Below are positions 4,135-32,370 of a stretch of DNA of 41,125 nucleotides, piece after piece (the stretch's first letter is position 1; every line of letters starts with the position of its first letter). Origin of the DNA: a virus; IMG/VR virus record IMGVR_UViG_3300039286_000350, positions 66,984 to 108,108 of that record; one strand, given 5' to 3'. Position numbers and translations under genes: made by a program. Under the pieces are notes generated by a model that was not told where the DNA came from, ran no database searches, and saw only the letters and a program-made list of their open reading frames with translations.

Positions 4135-5373
4135 CTACTCACGACCCTCGAGAGCGGCAAGCTCAGCCTCAAGATCTGTGGTGTCCTTCTGTTTGAAAGA
4201 AGGGGTGGCACCAGTTGCCTGTGTGGGTACTGGTACGCGCTCATCGGCAGGAGGCGGTACAGCAGAATCAGGTTGGGGCATTACTGTTCCATCGGTCAAC
4301 ATCATTAGGCGATATAGACCCGTCAGGAAGAACGTTCTCGGTGCTGAGGATGAATACTTAACCCGGTCGGCCATCTCCCAAGTCACCTTGATCGCCTGCT
4401 CAACAGTCGTCGGGTTCATGACATCGGCGAAGGAGGCAATTAGGTCGTTCTCAGACCCAGATCTCTGAACGTCTGCACCCATTTGGTACCGTAGTACATC
4501 ACGGTACCAATCAGTGATAGCCCGTACCACCAGCCCAAACTCGGTCGTTCTCTCCAAAGTTGTTAGGAGGACGCGCTCCAATCCGGGGGCATCTCTGGCA
4601 AGGACCTTCTCCATGATGGAGAGGAGCTCAGTACCTGAGACAACGCCGAGGGTCTGAGCACAGAGGTCTGCGGTGAGTTCCACAGATCCATGTGCGGTGA
4701 CGAGTTGATCCAAATGCGTGAGGCTGTCGCGGAGCGAACCGTCGGCATATCGAGAGATAATCTCAGCAGCATCAGGAGTAAGATCAACTCCCTCAGACTC
4801 AGCGACGTATCGCAGACGAGCATTAACATCGCTCTCAGTATGACGCCGGAAGTCAAGGGTGATCGACCGGCTGTGGATCGTAGCCGGTATTTTCTCGGGG
4901 TTGGTGGTAGCGAGGATGAAGACGACATGAGATGGGGGCTCCTCCAAAATCTTAAGCAGGGCCTCGAAAGCGTCACGAGACAGCGAGTGAACCTCGTCAA
5001 TGATGAACACTCGTTTCTCATAGGTCGGAGAATACAATCCTCGTTGTCGTAGGTCGCGAACATGGGCGACCGATCCATGACTTGGGCCGTCAATCTCTAC
5101 CACATCGGGGTTCTTGAACGCCAGAGCAGACGTACAAGAGTTGCACTCAAGGCAAGGGTTTCCATTCTCCTGCTTCTCACAATTGAGAGCCATTGCGAAG
5201 ATGCGCGCCGCAGACGTCTTGCCCGATCCTGCTACGCCGCAGAATATGTAAGAATGGAAAACACGACCATCCTCTAGGGACTTCCGAAGTACCAGGACCG
5301 CATGTTCCTGACCAACTAGGTCGGTCCAGTCGCGTGGTCTATATTTAAGGGGAAGCGGCTCGTAATCTGCCAT
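4135..5373 (-). CDS. dnaX: DNA polymerase III gamma/tau-like clamp loader ATPase (gamma-length)
   Basis: LKYRP..W.DLVGQ, Walker A GVAGSGKT, Zn module C..C..C..C, IIDEVH, LLKILEEPP, SRS. True start taken as MADYEPL at 5373, not 5559. Confidence 0.93.
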   Translation of the reverse strand: MADYEPLPLKYRPRDWTDLVGQEHAVLVLRKSLEDGRVFHSYIFCGVAGSGKTSAARIFAMALNCEKQENGNPCLECNSCTSALAFKNPDVVEIDGPSHGSVAHVRDLRQRGLYSPTYEKRVFIIDEVHSLSRDAFEALLKILEEPPSHVVFILATTNPEKIPATIHSRSITLDFRRHTESDVNARLRYVAESEGVDLTPDAAEIISRYADGSLRDSLTHLDQLVTAHGSVELTADLCAQTLGVVSGTELLSIMEKVLARDAPGLERVLLTTLERTTEFGLVVRAITDWYRDVLRYQMGADVQRSGSENDLIASFADVMNPTTVEQAIKVTWEMADRVKYSSSAPRTFFLTGLYRLMMLTDGTVMPQPDSAVPPPADERVPVPTQATGATPSFKQKDTTDLEAELAALEGRE

Positions 5374-5410
5374 CTTAGGTACTACTACACTGTGTTCTCG
5401 CGCGCAAAGA

Positions 5411-6346
5411 TCACGGAATCGCAGAGGCGTCGTGATGTTCGGAAGGATCAACGGCACCCTCAACCTGGGGCGGCAAGGTCGGTCCTTCGCCGTCACGGCT
5501 TTCCAACTCCCACCGGAGAAGCCAGACCAAATCTGCGGGGAAATCAGGCGTCCCCTCAAGAATCAGGACCTTCTCTTTCAAAGCCTGGAAGAGATCAGCA
5601 AGGTGTTTCATGCTGAACACACCATCTTCGAAGTGGGAGGAATGACGGTCCGTGCCAGATCCCTTCTTAACTCCAGGGTCGGGGGTGTTGAAGTGTATCA
5701 CGTCCGTCTTTGGCCAAACGTGAGGATCCTTGATCGCACTAATCATAGCAGGGACATCATAGCCAGACGAGAAGCAATGAGTTGTGTCAACACAGATTCC
5801 AACGCGGTCGCAACCTATCTGTTCCACAATCCACGCCAGCTCAAGAAGGTTCCCTGTAATGCCCCGTTGAGAACCTGTAATTCCAGTCAGTTTCTCATCT
5901 TTTACAGCCTTGTTCTCCAAGAGCAATCTTACAGGACCCTCGTAGTCAGTCATCACTTCCGTGACCGCCTCAATAAGCCAACCAACAGCATCACCGCGAT
6001 CATTTTCCTTGGCTGAACCAGGGTGGAAAACAAGGGACTTGCAACCAGCGCGCTCCGCCCAGACCAGCTGCTTGACGAGAGAGTGACGGGTCATGCGAGC
6101 ATTCCTCTGATCTGGCTTCTCGCATGCATTTAGTATGTAGACCGAATGGATCATCGAGTACACACCAGCACCCTTGGTCTTATACTCCGCGAAGATCTCA
6201 TCAGAGGTAGACGATGAAGGCCAATAACGCTGCGGGTTCCCTGCAAACATCTGCAGCGCCGTAGCTCCCTGATCTAGGGCCTGCTCAAGAGAGGCGAGAC
6301 ACAACTTGCCTCCGGGTCCACAATGAGATCCTATGCGCAGATTCAT
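5411..6346 (-). CDS. nfo: Endonuclease IV-like AP endonuclease (TIM barrel)
   Basis: IGSH, QMFAGNP, HSVYILN, VFHPGS, LLEN, CVDTTH, IHFN, DRH, ILE metal-ligand pattern. Start taken as MNLRIGSH at 6346. Confidence 0.88.
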   Translation of the reverse strand: MNLRIGSHCGPGGKLCLASLEQALDQGATALQMFAGNPQRYWPSSSTSDEIFAEYKTKGAGVYSMIHSVYILNACEKPDQRNARMTRHSLVKQLVWAERAGCKSLVFHPGSAKENDRGDAVGWLIEAVTEVMTDYEGPVRLLLENKAVKDEKLTGITGSQRGITGNLLELAWIVEQIGCDRVGICVDTTHCFSSGYDVPAMISAIKDPHVWPKTDVIHFNTPDPGVKKGSGTDRHSSHFEDGVFSMKHLADLFQALKEKVLILEGTPDFPADLVWLLRWELESRDGEGPTLPPQVEGAVDPSEHHDASAIP

Positions 6347-6714: not shown

Positions 6715-9579
6715 TCAGTCCTCATCCAGAATCTCTTCGACGTCCTGGTCAGTAACCTCAGAGTCAGACTCAGGCTTGCTAAATTTGAGGGTCAACAGAT
6801 CATCCGGGATGGTCAGCTCCTTGTTCCACCAGTCCTTGTGAGCACGTTTGTCCCACCCAGTTGCTTTGACAGCTTCGGCGACCGTCAATCCTGATAGCTC
6901 AACTCCCTTGAGGATCGCTGCCCGGCACAGTGACTGGAGCGGCTTCTCAGGATCAAACTCTGGGATATCCTTGGTGCGACCCATCCGTTCGTGACCAATC
7001 ATCTCATATGGGAACTCAAGACGGTCTTCGATCAGTTTCTTATGGCCAGGCCATAGGCTCTCATCAATATAGTCCTTGATGAACTTCTTTCGCTCTTCCT
7101 CTTCTTTCCGAGCAACCCAGGCATCTTCGATAGTGGAAGCATAGTCTTCCGCCTTGGAACGAAGGGCAGCCTCTTCCTCAGCTTCCTTCTTCTTAACCTG
7201 GGCAGTCTCGATCAGATCCTTTAGGATTCGATCAGGTTCACCAACGTAGAGCAGGCGATACGGGTGTTCGTACTCCCGCCGCTCATACTCCTGGAGTTTG
7301 TCCAGATCTTTGGGCATCTCAGACTCCGGCGTCCATGGAAAGGAACGAGCGTGCAGGTTGGCTTTGCGTCCATAGCGTCCTTCAAGATCGAACGTCCCGT
7401 CGCGGTTCCGCTTCCATTCCTTGGAGATCTTGACCAGATTAATCTCTTCCTGCCAGTCACGCTCAGTGGCCCAAATAATAAATCCAGTCTCGCGGGGCTT
7501 GGGGTCATACTCGATCGCAATAAGCTCCTCAGGACGTTTCTTACGATTCTTCTTCGGGAGATTGTATTCCGCTTTGATCTGCTCAACGGCCTCATCAATC
7601 TCGGCAGATGTGAGAGCATTAGATCTAGTGGCTCGAAAGTCGTAAGCCTCCCACAGATCCTTGTCTTTCCAGACAATCTCCCACTTCTTGTAACGGATGC
7701 CGATCAGTCGAGATTCATTCTCGGCTCGTAGTTCACCGTGACGGTTGTACTCACGCTCCAGGACATAAGGATTTAGATGATCATCTGGGTCTTCGTATCC
7801 AACTACGACGTAGCGGCCCGAGGAGTTCCGGTGGACGCAGATCGTACTTGGCCATTCGCCAGCCAGTCGAGCTGCAAGGCTTTCATCAGGCTTGTGAATT
7901 TTCGACTTGAGACGGCGTTTGTACTCGTTGACAATCTGTTTGAGGGATTTCTCATCATCCTCAAGGATCGATCCATGTTTCCGCGACTTGGTCTTCTGCC
8001 ACTGGATGAGCTCGTCAACGGAAGACTCTGCCTCATCACGAGGCGAATGCTCTGACATCTTGTCGATGAGCAGTACTCGGAACGGTGCCTCTTCTTTCTG
8101 CTCTCGTTTCTTCGCAAGTATTGCAGCCTTGATCACCGGGAACATGTCAACATATTCCTCGCGATTGATCCTGGACTGGAGGTAGTATTCCAGGTCCTCC
8201 AGAGAAGCTAGGTCGAAAGGAAGGATGTACTTGTCCGTGACCCTGATTTCGACGGAGGCACGTCTTTTCGCCTCATGTTCGTCGCCCCAATAGGGATCAT
8301 ATACCTTGCCCTGGCGCTGGAAGGCACATCGGTAGGAACGACCGTTTTCAGTCTCAGACGTGACCGCAAGTGGGACTCCGGAAGGCGGGAACTCACCCCA
8401 GGATGGCTTGATCCTGCTGTGCTCCACCCTAGTCATGCCGCGGTCCTTTTCCTGGACTACTGTGTCGTCAGCAAACTTGAAAGAACCGAACCCACCAACG
8501 ATCCGCATTCCAACCTGCAGCTGCTCATTGAGATTTCGCTGCCACTCTCGGAATTCAGGGCGTCCTGATCCGTCGGTGAGAAGGTTCTCAGCGTCAAGAA
8601 TAAAGCGAACATGTTCTGCCTCATGGGCTTGACGAGAAAGGAAGTTGATTCCCTGCGGAGGAAGAGGACGAAGAACTGTGGTCCGGTCCACCAAACCCTG
8701 CAAGATCAATGCGGCTCGCATGAAGTGCCGTTTTGCCTCGTCAGCTTGCTCCTCAGCTTCGTGCCACTCGTCCGAGCCAGGTCGCAGCGTTTCATAATCC
8801 TGGTCAGTCTCGTTGACCGACTCCTTGGAAATTTTGAAGTATGAGGTGAACTCGTCTGCGGAAGGGATCAGACGGTCGCCGACCTCAAAGTTCGTGTAAA
8901 CACGGAGCAGCATTCCTCCGTTCCGGATGAGGAAGTAAGTCTTGGCCTCGTCGCCAGAAGCACGGTGACGTCCGTATTCATCGTGTTCCCACTTCTTAGG
9001 AACCAGCGCAACAATCCCCTTCTCCTCAGGGATCACCTGGTCAACATGAGCAGGATCCTGCTTTAGCCAAGCATCGAATAGATCCGCCTCCATGGCCGTG
9101 ATACCACCGTCCTCCGCGGCAACAGCGCACTCCTGATCCATAGCAAGGACCAGCTGACGCACATGAATAGGTGTATCAGCAGGAGCAGGGTCACCGTCCT
9201 TGATGAGAACCATTTTCTCATCTGAACCAAGATAGAGATTAACGGTCCAGATCCCCTCTTGCATGATCTCAACCATCTCTTCCATGGGAGCCAGCTCGCG
9301 TGAGACGCGCTCCATCTCAGCGCGCATTTTCTCCTCCATGGCCCTAACCTCTGCCTTCATAGCAGACTCAAGTGCATCGCTCTTCTCTTGGATCCGCTCT
9401 GCCATCTTGTTGGCAGCAGCCGCAACTCCGGCCATCTCTTTTCGAATGGCATCGGGAGACTTGTCAGTCGTCACGAGGTCAGTGGAAGGCCCACCCTCTC
9501 GGATCTCTTTGGCTTGCTCGTTTAGTTCGTCAAGCTCAGAGCGAAGTTTTTCTATGTTCTGATTAGCATCCATAGTCAA
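6715..9579 (-). CDS. Large hypothetical protein (954 aa) with N-terminal coiled coil
   Basis: Long ORF; coiled coil in about aa 1-110, then a globular region (YLG...VRQLVLAMDQE, YFLIRNG, LQGLVDRT). No recognisable catalytic motif. Confidence 0.85.
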   Translation of the reverse strand: MTMDANQNIEKLRSELDELNEQAKEIREGGPSTDLVTTDKSPDAIRKEMAGVAAAANKMAERIQEKSDALESAMKAEVRAMEEKMRAEMERVSRELAPMEEMVEIMQEGIWTVNLYLGSDEKMVLIKDGDPAPADTPIHVRQLVLAMDQECAVAAEDGGITAMEADLFDAWLKQDPAHVDQVIPEEKGIVALVPKKWEHDEYGRHRASGDEAKTYFLIRNGGMLLRVYTNFEVGDRLIPSADEFTSYFKISKESVNETDQDYETLRPGSDEWHEAEEQADEAKRHFMRAALILQGLVDRTTVLRPLPPQGINFLSRQAHEAEHVRFILDAENLLTDGSGRPEFREWQRNLNEQLQVGMRIVGGFGSFKFADDTVVQEKDRGMTRVEHSRIKPSWGEFPPSGVPLAVTSETENGRSYRCAFQRQGKVYDPYWGDEHEAKRRASVEIRVTDKYILPFDLASLEDLEYYLQSRINREEYVDMFPVIKAAILAKKREQKEEAPFRVLLIDKMSEHSPRDEAESSVDELIQWQKTKSRKHGSILEDDEKSLKQIVNEYKRRLKSKIHKPDESLAARLAGEWPSTICVHRNSSGRYVVVGYEDPDDHLNPYVLEREYNRHGELRAENESRLIGIRYKKWEIVWKDKDLWEAYDFRATRSNALTSAEIDEAVEQIKAEYNLPKKNRKKRPEELIAIEYDPKPRETGFIIWATERDWQEEINLVKISKEWKRNRDGTFDLEGRYGRKANLHARSFPWTPESEMPKDLDKLQEYERREYEHPYRLLYVGEPDRILKDLIETAQVKKKEAEEEAALRSKAEDYASTIEDAWVARKEEEERKKFIKDYIDESLWPGHKKLIEDRLEFPYEMIGHERMGRTKDIPEFDPEKPLQSLCRAAILKGVELSGLTVAEAVKATGWDKRAHKDWWNKELTIPDDLLTLKFSKPESDSEVTDQDVEEILDED

Positions 9580-9815
9580 TCAATCTCGGAGAACTCTGAC
9601 TCTGGCAAAGTGATCGTGTCGGGGCTGCTCGGCCGGTGGAAATCGAAGATGGGGTGGTCACCGTCAAGAGCCCCGCGGACCTCTGCTCTTATCTCTTCCC
9701 TTTCCGGAAGATCTAGTTCATGCCAAGGGGGACCTGACAGTTGCCCCATGAATCCTTCGATCCTGGCATGGTAGAGCAGGACACAGATCTGGTCAAGATT
9801 CTCATCAGTGATCAT
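9576..9815 (-). CDS. Hypothetical protein
   Basis: ORF coupled to both neighbours. Confidence 0.65.
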   Translation of the reverse strand: MITDENLDQICVLLYHARIEGFMGQLSGPPWHELDLPEREEIRAEVRGALDGDHPIFDFHRPSSPDTITLPESEFSEID

Positions 9816-10240
9816 CAGGTCACCTCGATCAGGATCCGCTGGTCAGTCGTACCGTCCCAGGAAACCGTGAAGCCGTGTTTCTCGAGGATAGAGACAGCTG
9901 TCTTTCCGTGCTTGACAGAGCTTCCCCATCCGAGGTACATGGAGGAAACAAGAGTGTCACCGTACTCCGTCTCAGCATCCTCAAATTCCTCTTCCTCATA
10001 GGAAGGCTGAGACAAAACCTCGAAGGACTCTTCGTCCTGCTCGTGGAAGAAGACGAACGGGTCGCCGTCTTTGACGCCGTCAGCGTCGAACTGCGCCAGT
10101 GCACAGCCAGAGCAGCAGAGGTCGGCCATCTGAGTGGCGAAACCCTGCTCTTTCAGCTCATCAAAGGCTGCACAAAGCGCCTCCCGATCGGTTGCGTGGT
10201 GAACTACAGTCTCCATTACGTTCCCTTCTTCGGTGGTCAT
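9815..10240 (-). CDS. DUF6891-like protein (CCxxC motif)
   Basis: AFDEL...GF...CCSGCA...FFHEQD...YLGW...L..HG..V.WDG pattern, recalled from memory. Confidence 0.55.
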   Translation of the reverse strand: MTTEEGNVMETVVHHATDREALCAAFDELKEQGFATQMADLCCSGCALAQFDADGVKDGDPFVFFHEQDEESFEVLSQPSYEEEEFEDAETEYGDTLVSSMYLGWGSSVKHGKTAVSILEKHGFTVSWDGTTDQRILIEVT

Positions 10241-10789: not shown

Positions 10790-11352
10790 GCAGCCACCCG
10801 CGGATCAAGCAGACGCTCATTCATCAGCCTTCGCATCACAACATTGACTTCATAATCAGCTGATTCCAAATCGAAGACCTTGCAGATCGCCCGCTCCATG
10901 ATCAGATACATTGCCTCCTCAGAGTGTCCCGTTGGGATCACAATCCTGGTCTTTCGTCTATCTCTCCGAGCTATGGCTACTGCTGCAACATCATTTCGAT
11001 GCTTCTCGAACAGGTGGCGAATGTCCCTCAAGACCTCGCGCCAGGTCACACAATCCCAAAACTTATGGCCCCACTCGGGGCCAGGATACGCAGGGAACAA
11101 ATGAGGTTTGATTGGTGAACGGTGGTTCATCCCTCGCCGTTCTAGCTCAGGAACCACCATATCATCATGGTATTCAATCAGCGCAGATCGCTTACCATGG
11201 AAAGGTTTAGCTTGAGGTCCATTCGACCAGCCGGACGGTTTTCCACGCTCGAAGTGTTTATAGAGCACAGAAAGACAAATATGGGTCTCATTGTGCTGAG
11301 CGAGGAGACGCCTGTTGTCTAGGCACCTCATGGGAAGTCTCCAGATTCTTAT
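10786..11352 (-). CDS. Pyrimidine-dimer DNA glycosylase / DenV-like protein
   Basis: (M)RIW.LP...LD.RRLLAQHNE.H and EL.RRGMNH.SP match the T4 endonuclease V-like family. Start proposed at ATA 11352; the ORF track gives TTG 11394. Confidence 0.75.
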   Translation of the reverse strand: MRIWRLPMRCLDNRRLLAQHNETHICLSVLYKHFERGKPSGWSNGPQAKPFHGKRSALIEYHDDMVVPELERRGMNHRSPIKPHLFPAYPGPEWGHKFWDCVTWREVLRDIRHLFEKHRNDVAAVAIARRDRRKTRIVIPTGHSEEAMYLIMERAICKVFDLESADYEVNVVMRRLMNERLLDPRVAA

Positions 11353-11873
11353 GAGAGTGCCCTTTCCTTCTTTGCCAAAGCCGCCAAGGTACAATCCTCG
11401 TACAGCAATCTGAGCAAAGGGTCAGGGTTCGCCACTCTCACCGAAACGGTGTGACGCTGCTCTCCATGAACGGTCGTCTCATGGTCGAAACGCTCGCAGA
11501 ACTCAGCAAACGCATCAGCAATCTCCATCTGTCGAGTGTTGACAACCAGGCGTAGCCGCTTGTGTCCACGATCAAAGTCAACACAACCATCACCATCGAT
11601 CATCCCACGCCAGTAGTGCCTACGTAAATGAGGGTTAGTCCTGAACACATGAGGATGAATCAGACCGGGCCGTTCGAAAGGGAAAGTCACACCTAGCCGG
11701 CCTTGAGTATATTCCACAACTGGAAGATCCCAAAGCTGACCAATCGCATGTATCAGCGACTGATCCGTTACTTGGATGAGACGGCATTTACTACCCAACG
11801 TCTCACCATCAGCTACAAGAAGGCCTCGGACGTAAGCCTCAGTTGGAGTTCCGATCCTCATGGGGATTAACAA
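11349..11873 (-). CDS. Free-standing double-motif LAGLIDADG endonuclease-like protein
   Basis: Two motifs: AYVRGLLVADG and HYWRGMIDGDG. Confidence 0.8.
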   Translation of the reverse strand: MLIPMRIGTPTEAYVRGLLVADGETLGSKCRLIQVTDQSLIHAIGQLWDLPVVEYTQGRLGVTFPFERPGLIHPHVFRTNPHLRRHYWRGMIDGDGCVDFDRGHKRLRLVVNTRQMEIADAFAEFCERFDHETTVHGEQRHTVSVRVANPDPLLRLLYEDCTLAALAKKERALS

Positions 11874-11944: not shown

Positions 11945-13252
11945 TTAGAAAGCACGCTCTTCGGAAAGAGCATAAGCGCGCTTCTTAATTTCCTCGGTCT
12001 GTGGGTTACCCTCATTGCGAAGGTTGCAGGTGTTCAATGTCTGCACCCCAACATCAGGGAACTCAACGTCAACCAGACCACCAGTGATCGGCTCGTGGCG
12101 ATGGATGATCACTCCAATCTCGTCGTGGGCGCGATCTATACGAGATGCCCTATCGCCGATCTGGAACGTGCTTGACTGCGGTTCGCTTCCTTGCGGCTCT
12201 TCCTCCAAAAGATCAAGCTCTGGAGGAGCCGTAGATTTGGCCTGCGCGACAAGGGCATCATCACCCTCCAGGTCACTAGCCGCCTGTTTCGCTTGCTCCT
12301 CGGCCTCCTGTTCAGCCTCTGCAGTATCCGCGTCACGCTCGGCGACGAGGTCATCCGCAGACGGTTCCTCTGGAGGCCATTGTTCTCCAGCCTCTGCTGC
12401 TGCGCTAGAGACTGCGTGTTGCGGACTGCTCTCCGGGAGCTCAGCCGTAGTGCTCTCCACCTCACGTCTTAGTGGCTCGGCCGCGGCCTCAGCAGCAGCT
12501 TCTCGCTGCCCCTGGTCGTCGGGAGACGAGCTAGTTGGGGACTCCTGCTCTCGGGCGGCGTCCACATCATCACGTTTCTCTGCATACTCCTCGTCCATCT
12601 CGGGAGCAGCTGGATCCTCTATCTCAGGATCAGACGCGGCTTTGTCCGCCTGGTCGCGAAGTGACCCATCTTCGAACGGTTCCGCAGACGGTTCCTCTGC
12701 AGGAGCTTCCGCGTAAGCAATCTTCTCGCGTAGATCATCTCCAGACATACTCTGGAGATCACCTTCCACGCCAAGTTCTTCGGCACGCTGCACCAACAAA
12801 CTAAAATCATCTGGGTCTTCGGGAGCAGCATCTTCTGGTGCAACTTCCTCTGAGGAAGTTGTCTCCTCGTCCTGGTCAGAGGGAGTTTCCTCTGGCTCGG
12901 TTGGTTCCCCAGTGGAAGCCTCAGTAGGGGCATCCTCGACTGGTTCCTCAGGGGAAGCCTCTACCGGAGGGTCCGAGGCCGGACTATCTTCAGGGGAAGT
13001 CTCTGGCTCGGGAGGTGGCTCTTCCGGTGCCGGATCAGTCGGTGGGTCTGCCTCCTCAGCTTCCGCTTCGGGGAAGAGCTTTGCATCAACAGCTTCTATA
13101 ACTGTTTTGCGGGGCTGGTCTCTACCTTCCTCATGCTCCTTTACTGCAATCAGTTGCTCCTCACTGAGCTCATCGAGTTTAGCGACAACCTCCTCACCGC
13201 TGAGGGAGTCATAGTTCTCGAATGGCTCAGCAGGCTGGGCGGTATCGCTCAT
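11945..13252 (-). CDS. Acidic multi-domain protein (small helical N-domain, Rho-N/HeH-like segment, SH3-like C-domain)
   Basis: PFENYDSLS..EV..KL...E...RKTV; LVQRAEELGV...MS.DDLREKI; FQIGD....IGVI...VDVEF. Long E/P/A-rich linkers. Confidence 0.75.
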   Translation of the reverse strand: MSDTAQPAEPFENYDSLSGEEVVAKLDELSEEQLIAVKEHEEGRDQPRKTVIEAVDAKLFPEAEAEEADPPTDPAPEEPPPEPETSPEDSPASDPPVEASPEEPVEDAPTEASTGEPTEPEETPSDQDEETTSSEEVAPEDAAPEDPDDFSLLVQRAEELGVEGDLQSMSGDDLREKIAYAEAPAEEPSAEPFEDGSLRDQADKAASDPEIEDPAAPEMDEEYAEKRDDVDAAREQESPTSSSPDDQGQREAAAEAAAEPLRREVESTTAELPESSPQHAVSSAAAEAGEQWPPEEPSADDLVAERDADTAEAEQEAEEQAKQAASDLEGDDALVAQAKSTAPPELDLLEEEPQGSEPQSSTFQIGDRASRIDRAHDEIGVIIHRHEPITGGLVDVEFPDVGVQTLNTCNLRNEGNPQTEEIKKRAYALSEERAF

Positions 13253-14177: not shown

Positions 14178-17100
14178 TTAATGAGCCGAGAGGAGAACGC
14201 CTTCGCGCTTGTGTAGCTCTCTCAGACAGAAGTCTGTTGAAACCGGCTCGTCAAACAGGTTTATCTCAATAGGCCGTTCCGTAACACCGCAAGTCGGGCG
14301 GAAGAAGTCCTCCTGAGAGTCATCGACCTTTAGGTAAGAATCGACGCGGCGGGCAGGGATCGAATATATTTTGCTCATCGCTTTCGGGAAGAGAGCACCG
14401 TACATATCGTACGGTGAGAGCCTGTTTTTCAGGATCATGCTCACCATGACCGAGGTCCCTGACTTGTGCGCCCACAGATCGTGGATGAACGGACGAGCGT
14501 TAATCTCCTCTCGTTCGACACCCATGAATCCCTCGGAGCGTAGCTCAACAAGGAACTCCTCTGAGTCAAGGGCGGCACTGAGACGGGAGACAACTAGATC
14601 CTCCTCCTCAGCATCGAACGTCATCTCATAGTGGGACATGTCGGCGACAGATCTTACTCCGACCATTCCAGTCGTGTAGCTCTTCGCTCCGAGGACCTCC
14701 CAGTGAGGTAGGAGACCTGACTCGCGCATCTCTTTGAGAAGAACATCCATATCGACCATGTCGAAGAAGCGGGCGTCGATATAGTCGGTTCCATATAGGT
14801 GGTTGCGGAATGGGATGTTGTCCGAGGCAAACTGGACAGACCGCTTGTCAACCGGAGTATCTAGCTGGTATAGAGCACGTCGGAAGTAGAATTTCCAGTA
14901 CTCGTTCTCCGTGAAACGTCTGTTGGCAGGAGTAGATACCTTGAAACGTATCCGCTGGACGTTGCCGCGCTGCTTGATGATTTTCACGTTTTTGATGTCT
15001 ACTTCAGGATCCTCATTCTCATGGAGCTTGTGACGAAGACCGTGGTCGAATTTGTCACATACCCCGCAAAGGTCACAAAGCTGGTCGCACTTAGTAGTCT
15101 GCACCGCATTCTGGAAATCGAGGTACCTCTTCCATAGATACTGTTTGGTGACCGCCACATTGACGAAGTCCCAAGGAAGAATCTCGGTGTAAGGCTTCTC
15201 GTGGAGGAAGACGTCCCACACAGTCTCAGTTTCCTCCTCCCCATCCGCGTTGATGAATATGTTGGGGACGAAGTCCGGGAACAGCTGGTTGAGTTTCTCC
15301 TCCAGCTTGTGTCTAGTTCCCTTTGGAGTAGATCCGTAGTGAACCATGTCTTCCACAGTCACCAACCATTTAATGATCGGCCAGATCCTACGGTCCGCGA
15401 GGTGCAAGAGCTGCATAAGATAGGCCTCATCGACCTTGGCCCCAGAACCTAGACGGAAGGAGATTCCGAGAGCCTTCAAGGCTGGGAACACGTCCATCAA
15501 AGAGCGTTTATCAAGGGTCGGACGGCAGAACTGCATGGGAGTAAAGGATTGGATTACGAGAGGTGTCCAGGAAAACTTGATATCGCATTTGGCACCAATC
15601 TCGTCCCTCAGCTTGGCTGCTTTTGCTGCAAGCTCTACAACCTCCATCACATCTGCATGAGTCTCGCCAGGGATGTTAGCAATCATGAAGTACTTGATCT
15701 TTCGGTACCCCGCTCGCAGCAAGTGGGAGGTTGCGGTCAGGAGCTCGTCCTCCGTGCAGTTCTTGTTTAGCATGTCACGGATACGCTGTGAATTACCCTC
15801 GACTCCTAGTGAGCAAGTGTCATTGCCCATGAATCCGGTTAGCATCACAAAGTTTTCATCCTCAGCCATCTCGTCAACACGCTGAGAGATCAGCTTGATC
15901 TGGTCGCTGTGCTCCTCCAAGGTCCTGCGCATGAGCTGTTTCTTCTGGGTGTAGGAAGACGCGCAGAAAGCAGACGGGAGGACGTTGAGAGAGCCGGTCT
16001 CAGTCATCAACTCGCCGAGAGCCGCAGCTGCCTTGTCAGCAGACTGCTCTCGATAAGGCATCCAGGTCATTCCCTCCTGACAGAAGGAGCACTTGGCATT
16101 GCATCCTCTAGATATCAGTAGGGTCCCAGCAGACATGCCTGGGTCGTGGTAGGACACTACCTGATCCATATGAATGTAGTCCTCGTTCAGGTCTTTAATG
16201 TAGACCCGATCGACTGTGAGAGGAAGGAACGCGTCGATCAGCTCATCAATCTCGCCAGTTCCGTCCGTTAGCGACGTGATCTCACTCTCGGAGACGTGCT
16301 CTTTGATAAACGCGTAGTTCCGCAAGCGCTCTTTGATGACCGGATGGGCACGTCCATCCTCACCTTGCTCAAAATATGTCTCCTCGTGGAAGGCGGGAAT
16401 GTAGATCCCAGGGATCCCTCGCTTGCCTTTCTTCGCTTCCGCCTCAGTCCGATAATCGAGGGTTGTCGCCATGTACCACATGGTGTCCCACTTCGACATT
16501 CCTTTCTCCAAGCAGAGAGCCTGCGCTCGGAGGACGTTAGACAGGTGAGGCTCGGCGTCCCCGATGTACATCCAATCGTACATCGCGTAGAACGGCTCAG
16601 GTGAGAAGGAGTGGCATCCTCCACGTCCGATGATCGGCCAGCTGTCATCTCGTTCGGTGTACTCAATGGGGATACCAGTCATCTCAAGCATCTTGATGAT
16701 GTTGATATCTACACCGCAGTAGGAGCCCGAGAACATACACAGATCGAATTCCTTGATATCCCGCTTGGTCTCGAGGGTAAACATCGGTAGACCGCGCTTG
16801 CGGAAGCGATCCAAGTCGCTTCGGGACATTGGGAAATAGGATCGCTCGCAGACGAAGGAAGGGTTCTGATTGTTGACGAGTGAGTAGACCAGAGGGATGC
16901 CCAAGTTGCCGGCAAGACCAGTATAGGAAGAGCCTCCAATCGCGGCAACGCGGAAGGGTGCGAGTGCCCAGGACTCATCTGACTTCTGCACAGTGCCGAT
17001 CTCGTCGCCGTAATAAGCCGAGGGCACCGTCATGTGGTGCATGTTCTCGTCCATCCACTCTGCAATACGTTCCCTAGACCAGAAACCCTCCATCTTCGAT

Positions 17101-17261
17101 GGTCTTGGCTCGTCTAGGAGCTTGTTCCAAAGAGCGTCTGGATTCCTGTCTGCGTCGTAAAGTTTGCCGTATCTGTTTGCGGTGGTGATGGGATCAGCAC
17201 CATCGGAGACGAGGGTTTGTGTTGTCTGGACCTCGTCTAGCTCAAGTGTAGTGCCGGCCAT
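14178..17261 (-). CDS. B12-binding radical SAM protein (TIGR03960-like) fused to a TIGR03936/DUF2344-like domain
   Basis: P.AY.GDE, GNLG..L.Y, ERSY.P, LP.FTLE...I.EFD, GG...SPEP, IGDAE; SRGCNAKCSFC; LPWD...C...CDLCGVC; then VQRIRF...RF.......FRRAL. Confidence 0.88.
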   Translation of the reverse strand: MAGTTLELDEVQTTQTLVSDGADPITTANRYGKLYDADRNPDALWNKLLDEPRPSKMEGFWSRERIAEWMDENMHHMTVPSAYYGDEIGTVQKSDESWALAPFRVAAIGGSSYTGLAGNLGIPLVYSLVNNQNPSFVCERSYFPMSRSDLDRFRKRGLPMFTLETKRDIKEFDLCMFSGSYCGVDINIIKMLEMTGIPIEYTERDDSWPIIGRGGCHSFSPEPFYAMYDWMYIGDAEPHLSNVLRAQALCLEKGMSKWDTMWYMATTLDYRTEAEAKKGKRGIPGIYIPAFHEETYFEQGEDGRAHPVIKERLRNYAFIKEHVSESEITSLTDGTGEIDELIDAFLPLTVDRVYIKDLNEDYIHMDQVVSYHDPGMSAGTLLISRGCNAKCSFCQEGMTWMPYREQSADKAAAALGELMTETGSLNVLPSAFCASSYTQKKQLMRRTLEEHSDQIKLISQRVDEMAEDENFVMLTGFMGNDTCSLGVEGNSQRIRDMLNKNCTEDELLTATSHLLRAGYRKIKYFMIANIPGETHADVMEVVELAAKAAKLRDEIGAKCDIKFSWTPLVIQSFTPMQFCRPTLDKRSLMDVFPALKALGISFRLGSGAKVDEAYLMQLLHLADRRIWPIIKWLVTVEDMVHYGSTPKGTRHKLEEKLNQLFPDFVPNIFINADGEEETETVWDVFLHEKPYTEILPWDFVNVAVTKQYLWKRYLDFQNAVQTTKCDQLCDLCGVCDKFDHGLRHKLHENEDPEVDIKNVKIIKQRGNVQRIRFKVSTPANRRFTENEYWKFYFRRALYQLDTPVDKRSVQFASDNIPFRNHLYGTDYIDARFFDMVDMDVLLKEMRESGLLPHWEVLGAKSYTTGMVGVRSVADMSHYEMTFDAEEEDLVVSRLSAALDSEEFLVELRSEGFMGVEREEINARPFIHDLWAHKSGTSVMVSMILKNRLSPYDMYGALFPKAMSKIYSIPARRVDSYLKVDDSQEDFFRPTCGVTERPIEINLFDEPVSTDFCLRELHKREGVLLSAH

Positions 17262-18321: not shown

Positions 18322-19440
18322 TCAATCGTCTGGACGTAGCTGGAGGAGAACAGACTTGAGGCCAGGCTCCTCCATAAATATTGAGGACCGTCGTTTCGGT
18401 AGGTCCTCCCCAATCTTGAAGGTAACCTGTTTTGCGGGGCTCATCTCAAGTGCGTCGGCGAGGAATTTATGATTGATCATTAGCGTACGACCAGCCGTTG
18501 CGGTTGTCGTGCAAGGCAAGGTCTCAACAGCCAACTCTCCATGTTGATCCTGAGCCATCACTTTGACCTCTTTCGGTTTGTCACCGTTGGTCGGCTCAAG
18601 GATCTGCAGGTTGAGCTGTTTCCTCTCCTCGTCTGCCGCAAGAGCGATGCGTTTGATCGCTGCAAGCAGGTCAGTCTTGTCAAGCGTCAGTTTCTGGTCA
18701 TTGCCAGAAGCTGGTTTGAGGATCATCTCCTCAACGTCAGGGAACTCCTCGTAGAGACGCTGAGAGGAAAACGTGTCCGCGCCAATCTGGAAGAGGAGGT
18801 GATTCTTCTTGAGCTCAACGCTAACCTCCTCGACCTCAGTCCTATTCAGTAGACGAACGAGGTTGTTAACCGCAAAGATCGGGATCTGCACTCCCTCGAG
18901 CCCCTCGAAGTCCGCAATCTGCAGACGGGAGCCGTCAGAGGCCATCGCACGTTTCCCGTCGAAGGCAATAAGCATTAGATATGGGCGCATCTCGTCGGTT
19001 GATGCAGCGTACTGCACCTTCCCAATGGCATCGATAAGCTTCTCTCGTTTGACTTTCTTCGCACTCTCAGACTCAAAGCGCGGAACCTCGGGGTAGTCCT
19101 CTGGGTCGAGGATGTTAACCTGCCACTTGGCTCGGCCAGCTTTGACAGTGACCTGGTTCTCTTCCAGTTTGAAGTCAATGTCTCCATCCTCAGCAGATCT
19201 AACGATGGCCTGCAGCTTCTGCGCAGGAACACAGATAGCGCCATCGTCCTTGACCTGTACCCCACCACGAATCTTAGCAATGGAACCGAGACTGAGGTCA
19301 GTGGACAGGATCCGCACCTGATCAGGATCAGCCTCAATGTTGAACGTCTTGAGCAACGGGTCGTTGTCTTTGGACGACACCGTTGCAGCAGCCTTGTCAA
19401 GGGCCGTCAAGAAGGCCGCTTTCTTGATCACAAAGTGCAT
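18322..19440 (-). CDS. dnaN: DNA polymerase III beta sliding clamp
   Basis: 372 aa; STDL, DYP, ASTDEMRPYL, ASDG.RL, FPD motifs; three-domain length. Confidence 0.93.
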   Translation of the reverse strand: MHFVIKKAAFLTALDKAAATVSSKDNDPLLKTFNIEADPDQVRILSTDLSLGSIAKIRGGVQVKDDGAICVPAQKLQAIVRSAEDGDIDFKLEENQVTVKAGRAKWQVNILDPEDYPEVPRFESESAKKVKREKLIDAIGKVQYAASTDEMRPYLMLIAFDGKRAMASDGSRLQIADFEGLEGVQIPIFAVNNLVRLLNRTEVEEVSVELKKNHLLFQIGADTFSSQRLYEEFPDVEEMILKPASGNDQKLTLDKTDLLAAIKRIALAADEERKQLNLQILEPTNGDKPKEVKVMAQDQHGELAVETLPCTTTATAGRTLMINHKFLADALEMSPAKQVTFKIGEDLPKRRSSIFMEEPGLKSVLLQLRPDD

Positions 19441-29926: not shown

Positions 29927-30191
29927 CCAGCTTAGGGTCACCTTCTGGGTGCTGTATAAACACAGCGGCATCATCTTGCGGATTCTCTTTGAAAGCTGTA
30001 TAAACGATCCATCCATCTGATGTTTCACTCATAATCAGCCAGTAAGGAGAAGGTACAACGTTTGCCACTATATCCACCAAGGAGACTGTCTCGTTCACCC
30101 CAGAACGGGGAGCCGCGACCATGAACACACCAAGGGGTTTATGAGAACGAGACTGCAACCTTCTCGGCAGCAGTCTCCGCAGACGGCTCAT
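29901..30191 (-). CDS. Hypothetical protein
   Basis: Fills the gap after polA; start uncertain. Confidence 0.55.
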   Translation of the reverse strand: MSRLRRLLPRRLQSRSHKPLGVFMVAAPRSGVNETVSLVDIVANVVPSPYWLIMSETSDGWIVYTAFKENPQDDAAVFIQHPEGDPKLVAGFSTGG

Positions 30192-32370
30192 CTTGCTTCG
30201 CCTTTCGCAGGTCGATTAGGAATCGTAGAATCATCTGATAATCAGGTGGAGTCATGGTTAGGGTTGAAAACTTCTCGCCCCCTACTTTCAGGAAGTGAAC
30301 AGTCATATCGCCGCTGTGATCTGTTTGTTTGAGGAGTTCCACGAACTCACGTCGTTTCTCCTCGGGCATATCAGGAACAGCAATCTCTTTCTCGACTGGT
30401 TCAGCTTTGGTCTTTGGAATATCGGCCTCATCAATCCCAAGCCAATCGTTGAGCTCCTGCATGTCGAGCCAGTTTGGTCCAACCTTGGCGTCAATCTCAA
30501 GGGGCACATAACCCTCAATCGGGAAACACATTATCCCTTTGAGCCACTCGAAGAATGCCGCCAAGTCAAGGTCTGCTGGAACCTCGAAGAGCACCGAGTC
30601 ATGGATGGTAAGAACCATCTTGCAATCAGGGTAGGGGCAGTCATCCTTTCGCAAAGCTTTCCAGATACGCACCAAGGCGATTTTCATGATGTCAGCAGCA
30701 GTTCCCTGGACGATCGTGTTGATCGCTGAACGTTCTCCGAAGGCGACCTCCGAGGGAATCCGTGAGTTGAGCCAGGGAAGAGGGCGCCAGCGCTGGAAAT
30801 GAGTGTGGACTCCGCCCATCTGCTTCGCCTTTGCAACAGTCCGCTGGGTCCAGGCAGTTGCGTCCGGCATGGCTGCGAAGAAGTCGTCGAGGATTCTCTG
30901 CGCCTCATCCAAAGAGTAATCTGTGCGCATTGCCAGACCCTCTGGTTTCATGCCATAGATGGGACCAAAGTTCATGGTCTTTCCCATCTGGCGGCGATCA
31001 TCACCCTTGTCCGTGATCTGTTCGCGGAAGATCACAGATGCAGTCTTGAGGTGGAGATCCTCGCCAGTCTCGAACGCATCTATCAGATAGTCCTCACCAG
31101 ACTCGCTAGCATAAACCCGGAGCTCGATCTGTGAGAAGTCAGCTTCGAAGAAGAGCTTACCCGGTCGGGCAGGAAAGGCGCGGCGGGCCGGGGCCTCCTT
31201 CGACCTGGGGATCTGTTGCATATTTGGGGACCCACAAGCCAATCGTCCGGTCGGGACCACCGTACTCTTGAACGAACAATGGATCGCGCCAGTTGATGGG
31301 TTCACATATTCGTGGAGCGTGGTCAGGAAGTTATTGTGAAGGGTTTTGAACTGCTTGTAGTCACGAATAGCCTGGGCACCGGCCGCAATCTCGGGATCCG
31401 AAGACTCAGCGAACCGCCCAATCGTATTCTTGTCCGTACCGCCGAGCCCATCTTTCTTCTTCTTTCCCATGATGGGCCAACTGAGCGTGTTGTAAATATG
31501 ACGCGCCAGCTGCTTGTGGCTGTCAATGTTGATCGACTGGTCCATCTTGAGTTTTTCATAAGCGACTTTCCGTCGCACTTTGAGGTGGACGCCAACTTTG
31601 TCACGTACATCGAACAAAGTCTCTGGATCCAGCAAAATGCCGCGCATCTCCATCTCAAGGAGGACCACAAGGCTCGCCATGTCAATTCTGTAGGAGAAGG
31701 AATCGTTTAGGGCCTGATCCATTCCCTTTTCGTATAGACGGAGCGTAATGTCGGCGTCGCAACAAGCGTACTTGCGAGCAATCTCGGGCTCCAGCTCAGC
31801 AAAGGTCCCACCACCTTCGAAGTATTTCTTGAGAGAGGGCATTTCAAGTTTGAGATACTTGAGCGACATCATCTCAAGTGCGAAACCCTGCGGTTGAGGA
31901 GCACCGCGCTTGGCAGGTCGGTTCTCGGAAAAGTCCTTTGCCTCGTTCACATCTTTCAGATACCAGATCACTGCAACGTCATCGGTTATGTTTACCATAT
32001 CTTCCCACTCAAGGGGCCACTCACCAGCAACCGATCTCATCTCAGCTCGAGACTGTTGACACACATTCCGCTTCTTGCTTATCGCGAGGATGAACTTCTT
32101 GACTAGATCAACGTCAAGGTTGGGGATGTGTTCCATCCGAACAGGAATGACCCATCCTGATCCTGGCTTAGTGCAAAAGGAGAAAGCATGGACTACGTGG
32201 CCGTTGTGAGTAGGTTTGAACTCAGAGTCCCATGCCACGACAGGAGCGTCAACTATCTCCTTAAACGCCTCCACGGCGTTTTGAGTCGTGACCACCTTAT
32301 AATCAGCAGTCTCGACCCAAGCTGGGAAACGAATCTCGGGAGCAGTTGCGAAGAAGGATTCCTGTGGCAA
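30139..32370 (-). CDS. polA: Family A DNA polymerase (3'-5' exo plus polymerase, no 5'-3' exo)
   Basis: ExoI WDSE, ExoIII YACCD, TGRL...PNMQQIP, motif A ADFSQIELR, motif B RQMGKTMNFG.IYG, motif C HDS. Confidence 0.95.
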   Translation of the reverse strand: MPQESFFATAPEIRFPAWVETADYKVVTTQNAVEAFKEIVDAPVVAWDSEFKPTHNGHVVHAFSFCTKPGSGWVIPVRMEHIPNLDVDLVKKFILAISKKRNVCQQSRAEMRSVAGEWPLEWEDMVNITDDVAVIWYLKDVNEAKDFSENRPAKRGAPQPQGFALEMMSLKYLKLEMPSLKKYFEGGGTFAELEPEIARKYACCDADITLRLYEKGMDQALNDSFSYRIDMASLVVLLEMEMRGILLDPETLFDVRDKVGVHLKVRRKVAYEKLKMDQSINIDSHKQLARHIYNTLSWPIMGKKKKDGLGGTDKNTIGRFAESSDPEIAAGAQAIRDYKQFKTLHNNFLTTLHEYVNPSTGAIHCSFKSTVVPTGRLACGSPNMQQIPRSKEAPARRAFPARPGKLFFEADFSQIELRVYASESGEDYLIDAFETGEDLHLKTASVIFREQITDKGDDRRQMGKTMNFGPIYGMKPEGLAMRTDYSLDEAQRILDDFFAAMPDATAWTQRTVAKAKQMGGVHTHFQRWRPLPWLNSRIPSEVAFGERSAINTIVQGTAADIMKIALVRIWKALRKDDCPYPDCKMVLTIHDSVLFEVPADLDLAAFFEWLKGIMCFPIEGYVPLEIDAKVGPNWLDMQELNDWLGIDEADIPKTKAEPVEKEIAVPDMPEEKRREFVELLKQTDHSGDMTVHFLKVGGEKFSTLTMTPPDYQMILRFLIDLRKAKQDEPSAETAAEKVAVSFS

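Follow-up and report, generated by a model that had tools for sequence, protein, structure and literature searches.

A phage radical SAM enzyme with a pseudouridine-synthase-like domain and a candidate sliding-clamp peptide

Why should a radical S-adenosylmethionine (SAM) enzyme be encoded between the genes for a phage sliding clamp and its clamp loader? The question is raised by a gene in a 41,125-nucleotide stretch of viral DNA (the window), which covers positions 66,984 to 108,108, the final 41 kb, of the 108-kb IMG/VR record IMGVR_UViG_3300039286_000350. The gene is an uninterrupted open reading frame with an ATG start and 1027 codons on the minus strand, the strand that holds all the large reading frames of the window. 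Its 1027-residue product, P0001, which is also on record from a 155-kb contig, joins a radical SAM enzyme to a pseudouridine-synthase fold (Table 1). A model's reading of the sequence alone had proposed that the enzyme rides the phage clamp and acts on nascent DNA. The analysis described here leads, tentatively, to a similar picture: P0001 may be a radical SAM enzyme docked on the clamp, where it would modify bases of freshly replicated phage DNA that a dead pseudouridine-synthase fold presents to it.

The QEDFF peptide and the sliding clamp

Clamp clients such as Pol III alpha (QADMF), Pol IV, Pol II, MutS and Hda carry peptides of the QL[SD]LF type. P0001 shares with them a pentapeptide of the form Q-x-D-Φ-F (Φ, hydrophobic), the QEDFF that the sequence-only reading had picked out, and translation bears out its position. 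By count alone such a peptide is within chance, with nine occurrences of Q..[LFMIV]F and three of QxxFF in the 33,968 residues encoded by the 108-kb record; it is conservation that makes QEDFF notable. The longer string QEDFFRPTC is invariant in P0001 and six relatives of 70-87% identity (alignment A1, n=7). P0005-P0007 carry CxEC...CLxC behind it, whilst P0001-P0003 have lost the second and fourth cysteines, leaving C991 and C1012 in P0001 as the sole survivors of its relatives' CxxC...CxxC. Three of the seven close proteins have therefore lost two zinc ligands, yet QEDFFRPTC is unchanged in them, so that selection on the peptide seems to be independent of the metal site.

In more distant relatives the C-terminus appears, from its sequence pattern, to be a zinc ribbon. 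Its form is [Q]-x-D-Φ-[F/L], three residues (often R-P-x), CxxC, mostly 17 residues, and then CxxC or CxxH. Amongst 68 distinct tails (about 65 once a few spurious pattern matches are discounted), 57 retain the aspartate, 60 the hydrophobic position and 64 the F/L, but just 31 the glutamine, so the conservation expected of QxxFF holds fully in the close relatives and only for its D, hydrophobic and F positions beyond them. The x-D-Φ-F core always lies three residues ahead of the first cysteine in the roughly 65 distant tails. The QxDFF/zinc-ribbon tail is missing from the cellular-type proteins of 830-880 aa. The earlier description of a loose ‘C-terminal extension’ has to be given up: the segment is instead a zinc-ribbon elaboration, predicted to be ordered and packed on the pseudouridine-synthase-like fold.

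The predicted docking partner is the phage's own DnaN, which matches clamps in the PDB at E 1e-26. Its gene lies about 1 kb from the radical SAM gene, as the sequence-only reading had it, 1061 bases upstream with two reading frames between, one of 104 aa and the other for the C-half of SbcC, which is split in this phage. One copy of DnaN (11-row alignment) was folded with the whole 276-aa C-terminal domain of P0001 (93 rows) rather than with an excised peptide. The median ipSAE (interaction prediction score from aligned errors) was 0.75, against 0.00 for the highest-scoring of three controls. Amongst solved pairs 58 of 80 score as high, and amongst mismatched pairs 2 of 110. The runs share at least 65% of their contacts, with a partner pLDDT (predicted local distance difference test score) of at least 79. 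On the enzyme side, the confidently predicted interface comprises residues 981-993 together with patches of the fold (domain residues 14-17, 84-87 and 109-121). The lowest expected errors of the interface belong to F986 and F987, which are paired with clamp residues 152, 155, 170, 234, 240 and 366. When the phage clamp is aligned to the P. aeruginosa clamp and the positions are carried over to E. coli numbering, these contacts correspond to R152, Y154, L155, D173, G174, R176, P242, V247, N320 and the C-terminal strand, which make up the canonical peptide pocket. As in the known clients, the two aromatic residues are predicted to sit between clamp domains II and III, against the clamp C-terminus. 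Docking of the enzyme on the phage clamp via QEDFF is, on these predictions, probable.

The peptide pattern also seems to be shared by PolA, the protein for which use of the clamp is most expected. The likeness to an N-terminal QESFF in PolA, pointed out earlier, was found as described, the protein starting (M/L)PQESFF. Nine PolA relatives (51-72% identity) carry Q[ED][ST][FY][FLIV]P inside their first nine residues, and the PolA proteins of distant phages are without an N-terminal Q[ED][ST]F[FLIV]P peptide. At the other end of the protein, PolA of P0001's clade (P0160-P0168) terminates in V-x-[FL]-[AVS] (KVAVSFS, PAVAFV, VVQFA) and PolA of the distant phages that bear the radical SAM gene (L030-L040) in G-Φ-x-L (GLKL, GIEL, GMDL); either ending could be another docking peptide. 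Use of the clamp by a phage protein is described for MuC (PMC12867686).

Family membership and predicted architecture

P0001 matches Pfam Radical_SAM_N2 (PF19864) over residues 121-263 (99.5 bits against a cut-off of 29, E 1.6e-28) and Radical_SAM (PF04055) over residues 382-545 (41.7 bits against 29.5, E 1.7e-10). TIGR03960 (rSAM_fuse_unch) matches in three stretches at E 9.3e-72, and its 242.4 bits fall far below the NCBIfam cut-off of 462.3, so that P0001 is a divergent branch rather than an equivalog. With that qualification, the earlier description of a TIGR03960-like enzyme with a CxxxCxxC motif and a second cysteine cluster stands. All three cysteines of CX3CX2C and all four of the later Cys4 motif are at least 90% conserved in a 108-sequence alignment, in which the core residues E488, K500 and K523 are invariant. 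The Cys4 motif probably binds an auxiliary Fe-S cluster, and a consensus of 15 cellular fusion proteins has DCRxxxCxxCGVC after the core.

The other half of the earlier assignment, fusion to a DUF2344-like domain, is weak at the level of sequence: TIGR03936 matches P0001 at only E 0.0049 (16.6 bits, below its cut-off of 71.9) and PF10105 (DUF2344) gives no Pfam match in the C-terminal 288 residues even at E≤1. It is sustained by the predicted fold, by the clan to which Pfam assigns DUF2344, and by two relatives, P0033, which matches PF10105 at E 1.6e-4 (22.1 bits, just below the cut-off of 23.8), and P0017, which has a ‘faint’ precomputed match. The usual SHLD and YSxGFxPHP segments had been reported missing, and they are indeed replaced: where the cellular consensus (the same 15 proteins) has RFxSHLDL and YSxGFHPxP, P0001 has RRFTENEY and FASDNIPFRNH, and of these signature segments only S813 and G824 are left.

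P0001 is thus a phage-adapted branch of the TIGR03960/DUF2344 radical SAM family. It has the same order of PF19864 domain, CX3CX2C core, Cys4 motif and DUF2344-type C-terminal domain as the cellular proteins, but is only 19-28% identical to them, adds the zinc-ribbon tail with QxDFF, has an acidic C-terminal domain, and is encoded beside DnaN and the clamp loader rather than in the cellular mrdAB-rng-rplU-rpmA-obg context. Full-text literature searches for DUF2344, TIGR03960, TIGR03936, PF10105, PF19864 and ‘radical SAM-associated protein’ turned up no functional study, in keeping with the earlier remark that the cellular family is uncharacterised.

The AlphaFold2 model of P0001, made from the 108-sequence alignment, has a pLDDT of 93.3 and a pTM (predicted template modelling score) of 0.92. 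Residues 1-40 of the leader lie at pLDDT 34-56, and residues 1-34 are the sole part below 50. The N-domain and core (model residues 104..623) are closest to MgmA (Z 18.4, rmsd (root-mean-square deviation) 3.0, 369 of 417 residues), with MiaB, MtaB and RimO matching about as well (Z 18.3-16.7, MiaB at 18.3 and RimO at 16.7). CysS, OxsB and TsrM follow at Z 14-15, RlmN is also amongst the core matches, and spore photoproduct lyase is absent from the best 50 matches listed for the core. The class B methylases MgmA (9ccb), TsrM (6wte), CysS (9n1d), OxsB (5ul3) and TokK (7kdx) share the succession of a Rossmann-like N-domain, the part that binds cobalamin in these enzymes, and a radical SAM barrel, but P0001 has in addition the Cys4 motif, the pseudouridine-synthase fold and the zinc ribbon, and the Pfam scan gave it no match to the B12-binding domain PF02310, which matches one cellular relative at 3e-4. 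A class-B-like, cobalamin-type reading of the modelled N-domain and core is plausible.

With MiaB, MtaB and RimO the shared plan is of three parts, a flavodoxin-like N-domain, a radical SAM core and a C-terminal domain that holds the substrate. P0001 differs from these in having its auxiliary cysteine motif after the core, and a pseudouridine-synthase fold rather than TRAM as the C-terminal domain. Neither the 108-sequence nor a 17-sequence alignment has a family-wide conserved cysteine in the N-domain, which speaks against an N-terminal cluster of the methylthiotransferase type. C138, C182 and C216 of the N-domain are invariant across the seven close sequences, and their spacings of 44 and 34 residues recall that cluster; the wider family is without them, and a methylthiotransferase-like triad was ruled out for the family on the ground that the three are invariant only in the close clade.

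The C-terminal domain, modelled alone (residues 752-1027, pLDDT 95.1), is strongly predicted to be a complete pseudouridine-synthase fold. Its best matches are TruA 1vs3_B (Z 12.7, rmsd 3.0 over 192 aa), TruA 2nqp_A (Z 12.3), PUS10 (Z 11.9) and Pus1 (Z 11.8). Only entries with the pseudouridine-synthase fold exceed Z 8, the best unrelated entry scoring 7.8, and Foldseek agrees on the fold at E ~1e-5. Pfam, too, assigns DUF2344 to the pseudouridine-synthase clan (PMC7955657). The likeness to TruA, Pus1, Pus3 and PUS10 extends over their whole catalytic-domain fold (Z 12.7-11.8, 192-210 residues at 3.0-3.7 A) but at 4-13% identity, and the P0001 domain is fused to a radical SAM enzyme. Pseudouridine synthases need a strictly conserved catalytic aspartate. 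No aspartate column reaches 90% conservation in residues 752-1027 of the 108- and 17-sequence alignments, and the domain therefore more probably holds the substrate or flips bases than acts as an isomerase. When its profile was compared with five TruA sequences, alignment was confined to the middle third (domain residues 82-153, probability 45%) and did not place the catalytic loop.

Gene order, distribution and relatives

The radical SAM gene belongs to a conserved replication block, read in order as SbcC_N, (uracil-DNA glycosylase), SbcD, PD-(D/E)XK nuclease, DnaN, SbcC_C, radical SAM gene, clamp loader and TerL. The order DnaN, SbcC_C, radical SAM gene, clamp loader is retained where the radical SAM proteins are just 26-31% identical to P0001, and on further contigs. 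Besides the genes of Table 1, the window encodes the large terminase, AP endonuclease 2, uracil-DNA glycosylase, SbcD, the PD-(D/E)XK nuclease and a RecA/UvsX-like recombinase. The two SbcC/Rad50 halves lie about 5 kb apart with SbcD, the PD-(D/E)XK nuclease and dnaN between them, and both the split and the order are kept in distant phages. Between the clamp loader and the radical SAM gene lie two large reading frames, clusters c53 and c56, that only the closest relatives share.

Table 1. Features of the window, in window coordinates. Residue numbers refer to P0001 unless another protein is named; A1 is the alignment of the seven close sequences.
Feature	Position	Strand	Basis or note
Whole radical SAM gene (P0001), radical SAM/pseudouridine-synthase-fold fusion	14178..17261	(-)	Open reading frame, translation, AlphaFold2 model
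N-terminal leader, residues 1-60	17082..17261	(-)	Mostly predicted disordered; variable in alignment A1
Rossmann-like N-domain including Radical_SAM_N2, residues 61-345	16227..17081	(-)	PF19864, structure matches
Radical SAM core, residues 346-665	15267..16226	(-)	PF04055 1.7e-10; invariant residues
CNAKCSFC, residues 387-394, CX3CX2C for the radical SAM [4Fe-4S] cluster (C387, C391, C394)	16080..16103	(-)	Translation
CDQLCDLCGVC, residues 725-735, Cys4 (C725, C729, C732, C735)	15057..15089	(-)	Translation
TruA/Pus1-like pseudouridine-synthase fold (DUF2344-like), residues 766-980	14322..14966	(-)	Domain model, fold search
QEDFF, residues 983-987, candidate clamp-binding peptide	14301..14315	(-)	Conservation, complex prediction
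Degenerate zinc ribbon, residues 988-1015	14217..14300	(-)	Alignment A1
dnaN, phage beta sliding clamp, 372 aa, predicted docking partner	18322..19440	(-)	Pfam DNA_pol3_beta N-terminal, central and C-terminal domains
QESFF, residues 3-7 of PolA (gene 30139-32370)	32350..32364	(-)	Translation
C-terminal half of split SbcC/Rad50 ATPase, 219 aa	17339..17998	(-)	SMC_N and SbcC_Walker_B matches; synteny
SbcC N-half, 331 aa	23121-24116	(-)	
Clamp loader subunit, downstream anchor of the conserved order	4135..5559	(-)	phrog_5846 at 5.7e-63; synteny
Free-standing LAGLIDADG homing endonuclease, 174 aa	11349-11873	(-)	
Pyrimidine-dimer glycosylase	10786-11394		Gene start overlapped by 3' end of the LAGLIDADG frame
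954-aa open reading frame	6715-9579	(-)	No significant Pfam/PHROG match
435-aa open reading frame	11945-13252	(-)	No significant Pfam/PHROG match
141-aa protein, DUF6891	9815-10240	(-)	E 3.4e-15; same block as the radical SAM gene

The association with dnaN proposed earlier was upheld: amongst 20 IMG/VR records with the radical SAM gene, 15 have dnaN too, including all seven that are at least 90% complete. The converse relation is looser. A search with the SbcC C-half found 36 viral loci, ten with the radical SAM gene just downstream; it was found in none of the 21 remaining records searched whole, ten of them at least 90% complete (positive control, 5 of 5), and several of the loci without it read simply DnaN, SbcC_C, clamp loader. 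A core replication gene is thereby ruled out. The gene is accessory, and a conflict or niche function fits better than one in core replication.

Replication or repair genes were amongst the neighbours in all eight relatives' loci that were read. On the P0014 contig, Fpg/Nei overlaps the stop codon of the radical SAM gene; Pyr_excise and an AP endonuclease follow it in L168 and L169, and Lar lies near it in another lineage. In L169 (the P0012 contig, 40% identity), a SAM synthetase gene overlaps the radical SAM start codon and LuxS, which acts on a breakdown product of S-adenosylhomocysteine (SAH), is encoded two genes downstream (L169:6790-8001 and 11280-11753). That pair would fit a high-flux use of SAM as radical source and methyl donor with SAH as by-product. 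Many phages (L132-L167) have, between the clamp loader and terminase genes, genes for an NAD-dependent sugar epimerase/dehydratase, two glycosyltransferase-like proteins and a class I methyltransferase, which may serve virion or DNA glycosylation; as partners of the radical SAM enzyme these proteins were ruled out, since they are also present in relatives without it.

The six close relatives, found by a word-indexed search, are 1004-1055 aa long and some lie on 139-156 kb contigs. An exhaustive search widened this to 4888 cluster representatives at E≤1e-3, of which 582 pass at E≤1e-30, and many of the matches reach the query's C-terminal tail. Isolated phages in the GenBank phage collection include no close relative (best protein match 24% identity, no DNA match), a single-protein pattern scan of viral contigs gave no match, and an ESM Atlas feature search gave sub-threshold matches only. 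The cellular relatives (n=80) are mostly from anaerobes, amongst them Geobacter-like bacteria, Desulfobacterales, Clostridia and Nitrospirae, and PBP2 and RodA are encoded in the same flanks as the RNA- and ribosome-related genes considered below.

The best 149 representatives include 27 of 1150-2062 aa (P0018, P0021, P0025, P0028, P0030, P0031, P0033, P0035, P0036, P0047, P0051, P0060 and others), and most of these have one or two large inserts at five recurrent sites. In P0001 numbering the sites are ~179; 389-402, in or after CX3CX2C and the commonest; ~490, in GVEGNS; ~606; and 723-730, in the Cys4 motif. Of six long representatives scanned with Pfam, all but P0025, whose 332-residue insert matches nothing there, have intein and LAGLIDADG domains. 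The Cys4 motif is the site of inteins in P0033, P0047 and P0036. Inteins typically target catalytic motifs of conserved, important proteins, so that their sites speak for active chemistry at both clusters of the enzyme. The intein load of these homologues is comparable to that of ribonucleotide reductase or DNA polymerase genes.

Substrate and mechanism

How such an enzyme might work can be put together as follows. QEDFF would lodge F986 and F987 in the peptide-binding pocket of the beta clamp that the phage itself encodes, and this docking would put the enzyme on newly replicated phage DNA. There, the pseudouridine-synthase-like domain would offer a flipped-out base to the radical SAM site, and the base would be covalently modified, most likely by C-methylation in the cobalamin-type manner of class B. 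Such a modification would serve to mark the phage's DNA as protection from host nucleases; reversal of a lesion is a less likely purpose. The parts of this proposal differ in strength. DNA as the substrate comes close to an even call, falling slightly short of it, whereas methylation as the chemistry is doubtful. The most specific version, in which the clamp-riding enzyme flips bases out of new double-stranded DNA with its dead pseudouridine-synthase fold and puts a novel carbon-linked, probably methyl, mark on canonical bases, is rather unlikely.

A number of results weigh against the picture of a clamp-docked DNA-modifying enzyme. The pass of the complex prediction may only reflect likeness to the many solved clamp-peptide structures. 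Clamp clients and P0001 differ in that the P0001 peptide is internal, predicted to be ordered, fixed three residues ahead of the zinc ribbon, and 46% conserved at glutamine, the hallmark residue of the clamp motif. QEDFF is coil, 40 residues from the C-terminus, with a pLDDT of 86 when the whole protein is modelled and 94 when the domain is modelled alone, and the TruA alignments extend through it to residue 1008; order and fixed spacing are what would be expected of a structural element. The same synteny with dnaN is found for forms of about 850 aa that have no tail. The clamp idea has on its side the motif of the close relatives, the company of dnaN and the predicted canonical pocket, but not the glutamine or the tail-less forms. 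(One tail-less form, of 845 aa at L023/L024:9935-12472, terminates ...DWAVQESF, a four-residue echo of QESFF/QEDFF at the extreme C-terminus.) As to the chemistry, MiaB and RimO fit the modelled core as well as MgmA does, and any use of cobalamin is putative. A general link of the gene to MetK or LuxS was ruled out, being found in none of 20 genomes and confined to the P0012 lineage. Hypermodification of the 5-hydroxymethyldeoxyuridine (5-hydroxymethyl-dU) type was not supported, ThyA occurring in one of eight genomes with the radical SAM gene and two of ten without it, and ThyX in 0-1 of eight and four of ten. Every solved pseudouridine-synthase fold that was matched belongs to an RNA enzyme. 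The C-terminal domain is acidic in P0001's clade (pI (isoelectric point) 5.6, net -7), whilst its cellular counterparts are basic (median pI 9.1). Finally, RNase E/G is encoded downstream in 41 of the 80 cellular loci, with L21 in 21, L27 in 18, Prp in 14 and Obg in 18.

Together, the fold and the cellular gene context suggest an RNA-linked ancestry for the family and a role with RNA or the ribosome, so an RNA substrate stays a rival. P0001 might then retain the task of its cellular ancestors, using radical SAM chemistry to modify a nucleotide in tRNA or rRNA that is held by the pseudouridine-synthase-like domain. Its position within the replication block would be no more than an inherited order, and QEDFF a strap for the ribbon. 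Such an enzyme would have the nearest relatives of its C-terminal fold in TruA, Pus1, Pus3 and PUS10, which act mostly on tRNA, and those of its core in RNA-modifying radical SAM enzymes, MiaB and RlmN. The descent from neighbours of RNase E/G, L21, L27 and Obg and the ordered, evenly spaced QEDFF would be accounted for, and the phage record of P0001 has 29 tRNA matches. Yet tracking of phage tRNA arrays by the enzyme was ruled out: amongst the seven complete genomes with the gene, all of which have dnaN, G001 and G009 have no tRNA and three more have only one or two. An RNA enzyme would also leave without explanation the constant position of the gene between those for clamp and clamp loader, the passing of the complex prediction where the controls scored 0.00, the shift of the C-terminal domain to acidity in P0001's clade, and the invariance of the motif despite decay of the zinc ligands. 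An RNA substrate is unlikely on this balance, although it is the best placed of the alternatives.

The evidence for docking on the clamp would serve equally well for a DNA repair enzyme tethered there, which would reverse a lesion much as spore photoproduct lyase does, the pseudouridine-synthase-like domain flipping out the damaged base. The window is rich in suitable company (uracil-DNA glycosylase, pyrimidine-dimer glycosylase, AP endonuclease 2, SbcCD, RecA and the PD-(D/E)XK nuclease), and the Fpg/Nei, Pyr_excise and AP endonuclease genes that adjoin the radical SAM gene in relatives point the same way. These repair genes, however, belong to the replication block of the lineage as a whole, and the neighbours that were checked (epimerase, glycosyltransferases and methyltransferase) occur also in relatives without the radical SAM gene. 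Nor is spore photoproduct lyase amongst the best 50 core matches listed, and the two-domain class-B- or MiaB-like plan with an auxiliary cluster is typical of group transfer rather than of lesion reversal. Repair is accordingly quite unlikely. Weakest of all is the idea that the enzyme modifies a protein, be it the clamp itself, another replisome protein or a phage protein, with the clamp contact as substrate or scaffold contact: MgmA, the top core match and a protein glutamine C-methylase, and RimO both modify protein side chains, P0001 as a whole is unusually acidic for an enzyme of nucleic acids, and the large predicted interface with DnaN extends past the peptide, but no protein substrate is known for a pseudouridine-synthase fold, no candidate substrate gene travels with the radical SAM gene in the loci read, and the predicted contact has the geometry of an ordinary clamp client and is remote from the radical SAM site, which the folded construct left out, so that this idea is very improbable.

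The tentative preference thus remains with base modification of newly copied phage DNA by an enzyme docked on the clamp. A turn from RNA to DNA of this kind may have parallels: DpdA is reportedly a tRNA-modification fold redeployed for phage DNA modification. Radical SAM steps are reported in thymidine hypermodification of phage DNA (PMC8989533). If the enzyme does place a carbon-linked mark, it would represent a new class of DNA modification enzyme, derived from an RNA-linked cellular family and present across a large clade of uncultured phages.

As the number of its cluster representatives indicates, the TIGR03960/DUF2344 family is widespread, and no paper that assigns it a function came to light in the full-text searches. 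The phage branch provides the first concrete handles on it: a substrate domain of the pseudouridine-synthase type, a candidate clamp peptide, and a constant gene position with clamp and clamp loader. If the clamp link is true, P0001 would to our knowledge be the first established case of a radical SAM enzyme amongst clamp clients, and a pseudouridine-synthase fold would have been redirected to DNA, with a bearing on phage DNA modification, restriction evasion and the detection of modified bases by sequencing. If the substrate is RNA, P0001 would still be a compact, intein-free and well-folding representative for working out what the cellular family does.

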